A stretch of DNA of 64,000 bases from Escherichia coli (GTDB taxonomy: Bacteria > Pseudomonadota > Gammaproteobacteria > Enterobacterales > Enterobacteriaceae). The stretch lies in NCBI RefSeq assembly GCF_044324785.1, contig NZ_CP172127.1; one strand, written 5' to 3'. Both the position numbers and the translations under genes were made by a program. The notes below the pieces were generated by a model that was not told the origin of the DNA, did no database searches, and worked only from the letters and a program-made list of their open reading frames with translations. Shown piece by piece: positions 42,477 to 45,233 of the stretch (the stretch's first letter is position 1; every line of letters starts with the position of its first letter).

Positions 42477-45233
42477 ATGACGGTCTCAACCGAAGTTGAC
42501 CACAACGAATACACCGGTAACGGCGCTACGACATCATTTCCGTATACCTTCCGTATTTTCAAAAAATCCGACCTGGTTGTTCAGGTGTCTGACCTGAACG
42601 GGAACGTAACAGAATTGGTTCTGGATACCGGTTATACGGTAACTGGGGCGGGCACTTATAGTGGCGGTTCTGTTGTTCTTCCGTCGCCGCTTGCTGCTGG
42701 ATGGCGAATTACGATAGATCGTGTGCTTGATGTAGTGCAGGAGACAGACCTTCGCAATCAGGGAAAATTTTTCCCCGAAGTGCATGAAGATGCTTTTGAC
42801 TACCTGACGATGCTGATCCAGCAATGTTTTGGGTGGTTCAGACGTGCATTGATGAAACCATCTTTGCTTGCAAAATATTACGATGCAAAGCAAAACAGAA
42901 TTTCTAACCTTGCAGATCCATCACTTGAGCAGGATGCTGTAAATAATCGCTCAATGCGTAATTATGTTGATGCTGCAATCGCCGGAGTTGTTGGTGGTTT
43001 TGGTTGGTTTATTCAGTATGGTTCTGGAGCAGTATACCGAACGTTCCAGGATAAGATGCGGGATAACGTTAACGCTCTTGATTTTGTTCCGTTTGAGCAA
43101 AGATATGCTGCATTAAATTTTGAAGTTGATGCGTCTGAATGGTTAATTAATGCGATAAATTCTGGTGCAAGTGTCGTTAGAATACCTGCAGGTAAATGGA
43201 TGATTTCTAAGAACATAGATGTGCCTCCTGGAGTGTCATTAATTGGTGATGGCATTGATTATTGGGATACATATAGACCAGCGCCTGAAAGATTATTAAA
43301 AAGTTGGAGTAAAGGAACCCATCTTGTATTTACTGGTGATGGAGAAAAAAACAAATATTTTTTTAACATCTCTAATGAAAGACCAGTTAAAATTGTTGAA
43401 GGGATATCTTGTAAGTTCACTGAGTTTACAAATGAAGATTCTGTAGGTGTTACTCCTGCTACACCAAAAGCCATGAGCGTAGCTGTTAGTATCAACAGGG
43501 CATCACAGTTACGCAACCTGAGAATAATGGTAAGTAAAAATGGTATTGAAGGATACAATAACCCTGATTCTTATTCATTGGGTGATGACTGGGATATAGG
43601 GTTGCATGTATACGATAGCTGTGATTCAGTTATTGATAACGTACAGATTGTCGGCTATTGGAGGGTAAAAGGACTACTACTGACAGAAAATGACGGGAGC
43701 CTTTCAATGAAGGGAAATCCTGAAAAAACGCACTTTAATAACGTTTATGTCCAGTCAGGGATCGCGATAAGGAATAGCCCTCAGATTGATCTTGTAAGTA
43801 ATACTGAAAGCTCAGTGACATTTAAACATAAAAAGTCGATGAGAATAACTTCAGTTAAACAGTTTAAAATTGCTGGCAGTGAATTAGTATATACGTATTC
43901 AGATGCATCATTTGATGGAACTAACATCACACTATCTGGTATTTCTCCTGAAATACAAGGTACAATAAGTGTAATCAGGTTTCCGTCAATTGGTAATAAT
44001 TTTAGCGGGACTGTTTTTGAGAATACAGTAGCCACTACTCTTGATCATACATCAGGTAAGCCATCAGAATACTTTGGCCTTCCTGCATCCTTTGCATTAG
44101 AGGTTGATGGTTTCCCTGTTCGTAATTTAAGGTTTGATAAATTCAAAGCTCAAACAACATTTGATAAAGGAAATTGCATTTTTGGTGATTGCCGTGATGT
44201 TAAAATAACATCATCTGAGTTTGAAAATGGAATTATGATTGCGTATAACCTGACCGAGACTCAGGGTTATACAGGAAATCTTAGATTTTTTGCTTCTGAT
44301 CTTCAGAGCAGCGTTAACACAAGTGAGTTTAAACCAAGAGACGCATTTGTAGACAATAGACAAATAAAAACGGAGTTTACTGATGGTTCGTTCATTATAA
44401 AGAACTGGAGGCCTACAGATACAAAAATACAATGGTCGTCTGGAGCAGATGCTATTGTTCTTAGAGAGTCACCTGACGAACAATCAAACGGAAATATTTA
44501 CGGGCATCACATTGATGGTAAAAGATGGATTAATGTTAGTGGATATAACAAAGATATAAATATTTCATCAAGAAACTTAAGCGTAAAAAACCATGGTGAT
44601 GACTCTGCAGTTATTAATATATTCGGCGACTCTGGAAATATTGCCATTAAAGGTAATTTTTCACCAATTATTGATAACAGCAAATCTCTTGGTGCACCAT
44701 CATTTAGATGGGCACAGGTTTATTCTGCGAACGGTTCGATAAACACATCAGATGGTAGAGAAAAAAGTGAACCGATTAGTACAAGTGAGCTCAGCTTGTA
44801 TATGTCTCGTGGTTATGAAGGTGATGCAATTCTGGATGCATGGGGAGATATCAGGATTGTAGCTTTTCGCTGGCTTGATGCCGTCAGGGAAAAGGGAGAT
44901 GGTGCCCGCTGGCATTTTGGTGTTATAGCACAACAAGTGAGAGACGCTTTCCTCGCGCATGGGATTGATGGAACCAGATTTGGCCTTCTCTGTTACGATG
45001 AATGGGATGATAAATACGCGCCAGTGATGGCGGTAAGGATGATCACTAAAGTTGTGGATGGCGTCGAAATTGAGATGGAAGAAGAATACGAAACAGAAGA
45101 GCGAACTCTGGTTTGCAAGGCTGGAAATAGGTGGGGTATCCGTACTGACCAGTGTTTATGGCTTGAGTCAGCTTATTTGCGTAGAAGAATCGAAAAAATA
45201 GAATCACGTCTTGCAATGCTTGAAAGTAGCTAA
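42477..45233 (+). CDS. tailspike protein with C-terminal intramolecular chaperone-like (peptidase S74-type) domain
   Basis: 918 aa; conserved particle-binding N-terminus (...TGNGATTSFPYTFRIF...); AT-rich central region with beta-helix-like repeats; C-terminal ...SDGREKSEP.STSELSLYMSRGYEG... resembles the autoprocessing chaperone domain of endosialidase-type fibers. Confidence 0.8.
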   Translation: MTVSTEVDHNEYTGNGATTSFPYTFRIFKKSDLVVQVSDLNGNVTELVLDTGYTVTGAGTYSGGSVVLPSPLAAGWRITIDRVLDVVQETDLRNQGKFFPEVHEDAFDYLTMLIQQCFGWFRRALMKPSLLAKYYDAKQNRISNLADPSLEQDAVNNRSMRNYVDAAIAGVVGGFGWFIQYGSGAVYRTFQDKMRDNVNALDFVPFEQRYAALNFEVDASEWLINAINSGASVVRIPAGKWMISKNIDVPPGVSLIGDGIDYWDTYRPAPERLLKSWSKGTHLVFTGDGEKNKYFFNISNERPVKIVEGISCKFTEFTNEDSVGVTPATPKAMSVAVSINRASQLRNLRIMVSKNGIEGYNNPDSYSLGDDWDIGLHVYDSCDSVIDNVQIVGYWRVKGLLLTENDGSLSMKGNPEKTHFNNVYVQSGIAIRNSPQIDLVSNTESSVTFKHKKSMRITSVKQFKIAGSELVYTYSDASFDGTNITLSGISPEIQGTISVIRFPSIGNNFSGTVFENTVATTLDHTSGKPSEYFGLPASFALEVDGFPVRNLRFDKFKAQTTFDKGNCIFGDCRDVKITSSEFENGIMIAYNLTETQGYTGNLRFFASDLQSSVNTSEFKPRDAFVDNRQIKTEFTDGSFIIKNWRPTDTKIQWSSGADAIVLRESPDEQSNGNIYGHHIDGKRWINVSGYNKDINISSRNLSVKNHGDDSAVINIFGDSGNIAIKGNFSPIIDNSKSLGAPSFRWAQVYSANGSINTSDGREKSEPISTSELSLYMSRGYEGDAILDAWGDIRIVAFRWLDAVREKGDGARWHFGVIAQQVRDAFLAHGIDGTRFGLLCYDEWDDKYAPVMAVRMITKVVDGVEIEMEEEYETEERTLVCKAGNRWGIRTDQCLWLESAYLRRRIEKIESRLAMLESS

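Follow-up and report, generated by a model that had tools for sequence, protein, structure and literature searches.

Probable three-part origin of the tailspike gene in a Uetakevirus-type prophage of Escherichia coli

How does a single phage gene come to change its base composition twice along its length, and where do its dissimilar parts originate? This question is raised by the tailspike gene of a prophage in a stretch of Escherichia coli DNA of 64,000 nucleotides (nt; NZ_CP172127.1), which is referred to as the window throughout. The gene lies at 42477..45233 on the + strand, gene nt 1 being window position 42477, and is complete, with an ATG start, 918 amino acid (aa) codons and a stop codon in the list of open reading frames (ORFs). 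The PHROG 1171 profile, 'tail spike protein', covers aa 1-917 (E 1.6e-299), and an identical protein in E. coli E57 is WP_213766411.1, labelled 'tail fiber domain-containing protein' in RefSeq. It is the only tailspike of the prophage and its single receptor-binding protein.

Very probably, the gene encodes the trimeric tailspike of a Uetakevirus podovirus and is a recombinant of three parts, A, B and C, of which the central one, B, was imported from a P22-like type. Established directly in this analysis are the ORF and its domain identities, the step in base composition, the fold, the positions of the junctions and the occurrence of the parts in other genomes.

Base composition and parentage of the central module

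The content of guanine and cytosine (GC) falls abruptly in the middle of the gene. The segment encoding aa 258-759 (43248-44753) has a GC of 0.362 and a GC at third codon positions (GC3) of 0.26, compared with 0.456 and 0.41 for aa 1-203 and 0.455 and 0.37 for aa 760-918. The prophage without the tailspike gene has a GC of 0.494, and its other long ORFs a GC3 of 0.52 +/- 0.06. All windows of the same size in the rest of the prophage are richer in GC than the central 1506 nt (0th percentile, about 6 standard deviations under the mean), so the drop is far beyond chance. The original prediction, made from the letters of the sequence, had placed an AT-rich centre at about 43200-44700; composition is indeed not uniform along the gene, and these limits are at most 50 nt away from the junctions that sequence comparison gave independently (43251-43274 and about 44721-44754). 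It had also taken the flanks to resemble the rest of the phage, which is true insofar as they fall within the range of the prophage, but both are somewhat low, at the 10th-11th percentile of windows of their size.

Low central GC could be a mere by-product of amino-acid composition, or of selection on a beta-helix rich in Asn, Ile, Lys and Ser, with no transfer involved. AT-rich receptor-binding domains do occur in several E. coli prophage tailspikes (GC 0.32-0.39 in phiv142-3, 0.38-0.43 in AST215), as this explanation would expect. GC at second codon positions, however, is nearly constant over the segments (0.39-0.43), so the shift is mainly synonymous, and it is largest at the synonymous third positions (GC3 0.26 versus 0.37-0.41 in the flanks). 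Moreover, the centre of a homologue with 75% aa identity, described below, has a GC of about 0.50; AT-richness is thus not imposed by the protein sequence. Together with sharp identity steps at both junctions and with a near-identical block standing in an unrelated gene context, this homologue leads us to reject the explanation as extremely improbable.

The unrelated context emerged from a megablast search of 5426 complete E. coli genomes. Whole copies of the tailspike gene are present in 12 of them. In genes annotated 'phage tailspike protein' that belong to a different type of phage, only gene nt 774-2278 recur (1505 nt, 98.8% identity). Altogether, the module is carried by 20 P22-like and 12 Uetakevirus-type genes, four genomes having both, which makes 28 carriers. 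The P22-like genes sit beside intS/argW in a P22-like prophage and encode tailspikes of 824 aa, with Head_binding domain PF09008 (E 3e-67) at the start and a divergent S74 domain of their own at the end. In the P22-like (Lederbergvirus) protein WP_213666884.1 (NCCP12480 / O15_8X, 824 aa), aa 193-694 match aa 258-759 of the window protein at about 99% identity. Both proteins end in an S74 chaperone, but the N-terminus of the former is the P22 Head_binding domain and that of the latter a Uetakevirus anchor, and the P22-like chaperone is a divergent, AT-rich allele with 25-45% aa identity to that of the window.

The second informative relative is the Uetakevirus-type tailspike of O15_8X (WP_213666883.1, 911 aa), which has the same backbone, a homologous centre with a GC of about 0.50 and a different chaperone allele. 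Over codons 181-266 its gene is 100% identical to that of the window (258 nt, ending at gene nt 798); beyond them identity drops to about 70% nt and 75% aa. The start of the beta-helix (N-cap, aa 204-258; 43086..43250, + strand) accordingly belongs to the backbone allele: over aa 181-260 nt identity is 100% to O15_8X and 48-60% to the P22-like gene. Since a GC-normal allele of the same family exists on the same backbone, the AT-rich version is best seen as a replacement.

Three-way alignment places the left crossover at gene nt 775-798 (43251..43274, + strand), in codons G259-Y266, which spell GIDYWDTY. Identity of the window gene to O15_8X holds through nt 798, its match to the P22-like gene begins at nt 775, and the 24-nt stretch between these points is common to all three genes save for one P22-like mismatch. 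Within it, identity to O15_8X steps from 100% to 70% and identity to the P22-like gene from below 60% to 99%. In the protein, D261 and W263 of this motif are invariant in 50/50 homologues. The reverse step is found at gene nt ~2245-2278 (44721..44754, + strand; codons Y749-G760, YSANGSINTSD/G), as judged from the decay and rise of identity: that to the P22-like gene falls from nt ~2245 and stops at nt 2278, and that to the AST215 type climbs from ~2239-2262. By this alignment the right crossover is in the codons YSANGSINTSD, at the predicted Ser758/Asp759 cleavage site. Abrupt breakpoints and the unrelated gene context mark the centre, at the level of sequence, as a horizontally exchanged module with a putative receptor-binding role, as the original prediction had proposed.

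Which way did the module travel? The AT-rich beta-helix might be native to this Uetakevirus lineage and have been given to P22-like prophages. The copies of the shared block in the two contexts are 98.8% identical, and identity alone carries no direction; besides, the receptor-binding domains of other Uetakeviruses, such as phiv142-3 mentioned above, are AT-rich too. In the window, however, AT-richness ends at both junctions, where the flanks are identical to the GC-normal O15_8X allele, and in the P22-like gene it runs past both of them into its own N-cap and chaperone (GC 0.34-0.38). This difference points to import into the Uetakevirus gene, not to export from it. The P22-like form is also the more widespread one (20 genomes versus 12). 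We therefore regard donation by the Uetakevirus lineage as unlikely and prefer import of B from the P22-like type.

Opportunity for such recombination exists, as 4/12 carriers of the gene also hold a P22-like prophage with the same module, and in O15_8X the donor type of P22-like prophages occurs together with the GC-normal allele of the backbone. The four double carriers are E57 (NZ_CP121153.1, 1387-1390 kb and 1587-1590 kb), OZ040490, Combat2C1 and ECE170. Judged by their sequences, they are lysogens of two phage genera with the same predicted receptor.

The C-terminal part has a separate history. The original prediction was right about the central swap, but the C-terminus, which it had counted with the phage backbone, appears from sequence comparison to be a separately exchanged module. 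Module C, together with 146 nt of 3' flank, is present only in the same 12 genomes as the whole gene; the flank that travels with it by co-occurrence, at 45234..45378 (+ strand), contains a hairpin and a U-tract, and backbone identity to O15_8X resumes at 45379. The closest relative of module C is the P22-like tailspike of strain AST215, at 88.5-90.7% (88.5% over gene nt 2239-2752).

The following course of events would account for these data. Module B, as carried in an AT-rich allele by P22-like (Lederbergvirus) prophages, would have entered a GC-normal resident tailspike of the same protein family by homologous recombination. Its crossovers would have fallen in two family-conserved motifs, one in the first beta-helix rung (GIDYWDTY) and one where cleavage is predicted (SINTSD), which bracket the body presumed to determine specificity. 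Module C with its 146-nt flank would have come from a third lineage. On this account, for which the sequences give direct evidence, divergent alleles of one tailspike family recombine in prophages that share one cell.

The anchor, the beta-helix and the chaperone

The N-terminal virion-anchor module, aa 1-203 (42477..43085, + strand), is of Uetakevirus origin. Its DNA is 95-97% identical to the N-termini of tail fibres or tailspikes of the Uetakeviruses phiv142-3, ZX5, HEMP4 and EC.W1-9. The match is confined to gene nt 1-536/610, the C-terminal parts of phiv142-3, ZX5 and HEMP4 being unrelated and that of EC.W1-9 likewise wholly divergent. More broadly, the anchor is shared at 95-100% with phiv142-3 and O15_8X and at 73-76% DNA identity, over nt 1-348, with the Salmonella E15 type. 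A search of solved structures matched aa 1-180 to the N-terminal domain of the Klebsiella phage tailspikes Dpo31/Dpo36 (E 8.6e-32), and about 20 PHROG tail families match the N-terminus only. An anchor had been predicted here, with a conserved region of about 170 aa; that length was an underestimate, since conservation extends to about aa 203 in other Uetakeviruses and to aa 266 in the nearest backbone allele. Module A (aa 1 to ~258) would thus supply a genus-specific anchor that docks the spike on the tail, as well as the first rung of the beta-helix.

The AT-rich module that follows (aa 258-759; 43248..44753, + strand) models as a right-handed parallel beta-helix with a short stalk. In structural comparison it resembles known tailspike depolymerases, and the beta-helix-like repeats that had been suspected in the centre are borne out by the model. 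Module B (aa ~259-757) would bind, and probably cleave, a surface polysaccharide and so bring the virion to the outer membrane. Its nearest solved beta-helices, CBA120 TSP1/TSP2 (4OJ5, 6W4Q), phi29 gp12 (3GQ7), Klebsiella Depo32 (7VZ3) and those of Dettilon, HK620 and P22, share 9-16% sequence identity with it, and no catalytic motif common to them and the window protein is established.

Nine acidic residues, among them those of D370-x-W-D373 and E404-N-D406, do not vary across 50 homologues, the most distant of which share 33% identity. The invariant carboxylates D370, D373, E404, E416, E542, D563, D574 and E583 suggest a candidate active site. Such an invariant acidic pattern is typical of active-site carboxylates in the tailspike endoglycosidases of P22, HK620 and CBA120. 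The module might alternatively bind its receptor without depolymerase activity, or act as an esterase or deacetylase instead of a glycosidase or lyase, and the low identity to solved structures leaves room for such chemistry. The invariant acidic residues argue against it, as do the top structural neighbours, most of which are enzymes, and the several homologues that match the pectate-lyase-like family PF12708. We give this alternative a minor share of the probability and consider B to be probably a receptor-binding, polysaccharide-cleaving body.

The beta-helix family to which module B belongs is itself highly modular. Its members are joined to at least five anchor types (PF09008, PF18668, PF03906, PF12571 and the Uetakevirus type) and nearly always terminate in PF13884. 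PF12708 is matched at the N-cap by many homologues and by the P22-like carrier tailspike. In a phage collection searched by tblastn, relatives of module B were found in Justusliebigvirus SD2 (61%) and Vectrevirus DIJ06P1 (52%). The 90% cluster of the window protein comprises 654 sequences. No member of the family appears to have been characterised or solved.

Module C is an intramolecular chaperone of the Peptidase_S74 type, aa 759-918 (44751..45230, + strand; GC 0.455), an assignment on which sequence, a Ser-Lys pair and the modelled fold agree. PF13884 scores 42.7 bits on aa 758-829, compared with a cut-off of 22 (E 7e-11). Residues 709-917 align to the chaperone of K1F endosialidase, 3GW6, with E 4.5e-34 in phmmer and 34% identity in Foldseek; phmmer also finds the chaperones of the phage GA-1 neck appendage (3GUD, E 1.4e-17) and of the T5 L-shaped tail fibre (4UW8, E 2e-8). 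When the model of the domain (predicted local distance difference test, pLDDT, 79-90) is compared by Foldseek, chains of 3gw6 come first (E 8e-13), followed by 3gud (E 7e-7), with template modelling scores (TMt) of 0.75-0.78. An S74-type domain at this end had been foreseen in the original prediction.

The predicted autocleavage site (44748..44765, + strand) comprises Ser758 (44748-44750), Asp759 and Lys763 (44763-44765). In the 3GW6 alignment, S758 lies at the cleavage-site position and K763, five residues further on, at the lysine; 47/50 and 46/50 homologues, respectively, keep them. In the K1F endosialidase the dyad is reportedly S911/K916. K1F endoNF thus resembles the window protein in the sequence, fold and Ser/Lys register of its C-terminal chaperone but differs in the passenger, which is a sialidase beta-propeller there and a parallel beta-helix here. 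There is also a weak match (E 0.004, below cut-off) to the endosialidase stalk family PF12219, over its final 43 positions only. By analogy with K1F endosialidase, module C would nucleate folding of the trimeric stalk. Three chains would assemble, after which C would cleave itself off between Ser758 and Asp759 by means of the Ser758/Lys763 dyad, leaving a mature spike of 758 residues.

Several points weigh against this account of the gene and its product. Cleavage at S758, trimerisation and glycan hydrolysis are deduced from homology, and the receptor, too, is a matter of inference. A single chain was modelled, and confidence is low in the stalk directly ahead of the cleavage site (aa 740-757); this is the only disordered stretch of the model, as expected when a trimeric stalk is modelled as a monomer. 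The query reaches no Pfam beta-helix or glycosidase family, the only Pfam signal in aa 180-759 being the sub-threshold tail of PF12219; NCBIfam gives no model for the tailspike, and PADLOC no match. At 9-16% identity, the solved beta-helices do not fix hydrolase, lyase or esterase chemistry. The actual donor of module C and its 3' flank was not found, its nearest relative being the AST215 tailspike. Finally, the carriers are of types O6, O25, O11 and O2, which is a misfit with a simple serogroup-specific O-antigen endoglycosidase.

The prophage and the neighbourhood of the gene

The prophage, about 39.6 kb long (window ~7.8-47.3 kb), is integrated between guaA and yfgI. A near-identical prophage of E57 is annotated with an integrase, RecT, replication genes, terminase, portal, major capsid protein, large internal proteins and a core protein like T7 gp14. 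After these comes a short leftward block, which comprises an antirepressor, the tailspike gene, a pair of holins, a GH19 endolysin and an Rz-like gene (DUF2514). The closest sequenced phages are classified as Uetakevirus (epsilon15/phiV10 group) and have the same local gene order; with phiv142-3, synteny is shared over the antirepressor, a small ORF, the tailspike, the holins, the GH19 endolysin and the Rz-like gene. Tailspikes of Uetakeviruses (epsilon15 gp20 type, phiV10, phiv142-3 Orf6, O15_8X) occupy the same genome position ahead of the lysis cassette, although the receptor-binding part of phiv142-3 is unrelated to that of the window and is without an aligned S74 domain. By the sequence of its anchor and by its position, we assign the prophage and its tailspike to the Uetakevirus type.

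Directly upstream of the tailspike gene and divergent from it are a Bro-N/antirepressor-like gene (41021-41758, - strand) and an ORF of 91 aa (42024-42299, - strand), a layout found also in phiv142-3 and O15_8X. A scan for sigma-70 promoters upstream of the tailspike gene gave none on the + strand and fewer sites overall than in shuffled sequences. Downstream, a hairpin followed by a U-tract at 45252-45299 (+ strand; free energy, dG, -17.5 kcal/mol, z -4.3) starts 19 nt past the tailspike stop codon. This structure, overlooked by a simple terminator scan, is likely an intrinsic terminator between the tailspike and the lysis cassette.

A second AT-rich patch (GC 0.36-0.42), situated between the tail genes and the tailspike, contains an ORF of 193 aa (40293-40874, - strand), which had no match in Pfam, PADLOC or NCBIfam. 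Window positions 40279-40932 are without counterpart in O15_8X, whose slot holds a YafO-family toxin pair, and the slot looks like a variable site for 'moron' cargo. A tRNA-Arg gene with anticodon TCT (23032-23108, - strand) is located within the prophage between the terminase and portal regions.

Hosts, receptor and significance

The module had been expected to define specificity for the O-antigen or capsule of the host. O-antigen loci were recognised from PGAP wzx/wzy names in ECONIH2 (O6), CRKP-1 (O25) and EC17GD31 (O11). All 28 carriers were then typed indirectly: searches were made with the module joined to marker genes for O-types, and the surplus of matching places in each genome was counted, a procedure in which '+1' could be a partial marker match. 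By this place count, the 12 Uetakevirus-type carriers comprise five O6, six O25, one O11 and no other type; the 20 P22-like carriers comprise three O6, one O25, six O11 and ten others, the four genomes with both gene forms being counted in both groups. Among all 28 carrier genomes, O6, O25 and O11 are represented by six each and other types by ten, O6 being enriched (6/28 versus 154/5426 overall). One of the 'other' P22-like carriers, 04-00955, is an O2:H6 strain (PMC3958309); in the papers that name carrier strains, a serotype is given for that strain alone.

We tried to deduce the receptor from the O-type of the host, and no single serogroup explains the distribution across the 28 carriers. 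With at least four O-antigen loci among them, host typing does not bear out the specificity that had been expected. Possible explanations are that the receptor is something else than the O-antigen, that the O-locus was replaced after lysogeny, or that specificity is broad. Copies of the module at least 98.5% identical are found in apparently intact prophages of O6, O25, O11 and O2 hosts, and a third of the Uetakevirus-type carriers are doubly lysogenic with a P22-like phage bearing the same module. Speculatively, and with considerably less than even chances, the module may recognise a glycan shared by many serogroups, such as the core, a polysaccharide like the enterobacterial common antigen (ECA), or another common polysaccharide or substituent.

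In the O25 cluster of CRKP-1, an unnamed 'hypothetical protein' gene (23209-24271 of that locus) is flagged as frameshifted. If this gene is wzy and the frameshift is real, polymerised O-antigen would be scarce or absent in the host, a point of relevance to the target of the tailspike.

Exchange of modular tailspike domains between Uetake- and Lederbergvirus is already published, and S74 chaperones are well known as appendages of both tailspikes and fibres. In main-text passages of Pas, Latka, Fieseler and Briers (2023, PMC10408124), exchange of receptor-binding domains behind conserved anchors is described among Lederberg-, Uetake-, Kutter-, Justusliebig- and other coliphage genera, and some prophage receptor-binding-protein subtypes are said to span several serogroups, for which the same explanations are suggested. 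According to the same passages, the conserved DNA recombination motifs of that study were confined to lytic genera, and prophages of Uetake- and Lederbergvirus lack them. The crossovers described here differ in that they fall within coding motifs conserved in the beta-helix family itself, and these motifs appear to serve the role of recombination motifs. The present tailspike subtype was not found named in those main-text passages. VecB of Justusliebigvirus, connected there with O6/O11/O153 prophages, was considered as this subtype; it is absent from the tblastn matches in the phage collection, and no link was obtained.

The gene is otherwise a standard, already annotated prophage tailspike. 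What is added is detail: the alignments resolve the crossovers to a few codons (24 nt and ~34 nt) and put one of them where the chaperone is predicted to cut; the same backbone also occurs with a GC-normal sister allele; and the hosts belong to several serogroups. Receptor-binding modules of tailspikes set the host range of phages, and they are parts swapped by phage engineers and designers of tailocins. The locus offers a natural example in which both crossovers are mapped to a few codons and both parental allele types occur together in some genomes, and it indicates points at which P22-like and epsilon15-like scaffolds may be cut and pasted without breaking folding. That a near-identical module is spread over several O-serogroups is a warning against predicting the serotype of a host from its prophage tailspikes, and possibly reflects a broader receptor. 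If a glycan shared by many serogroups is indeed the target, the module would represent a naturally portable, broad-range receptor-binding cassette bounded by GIDYWDTY and SINTSD.

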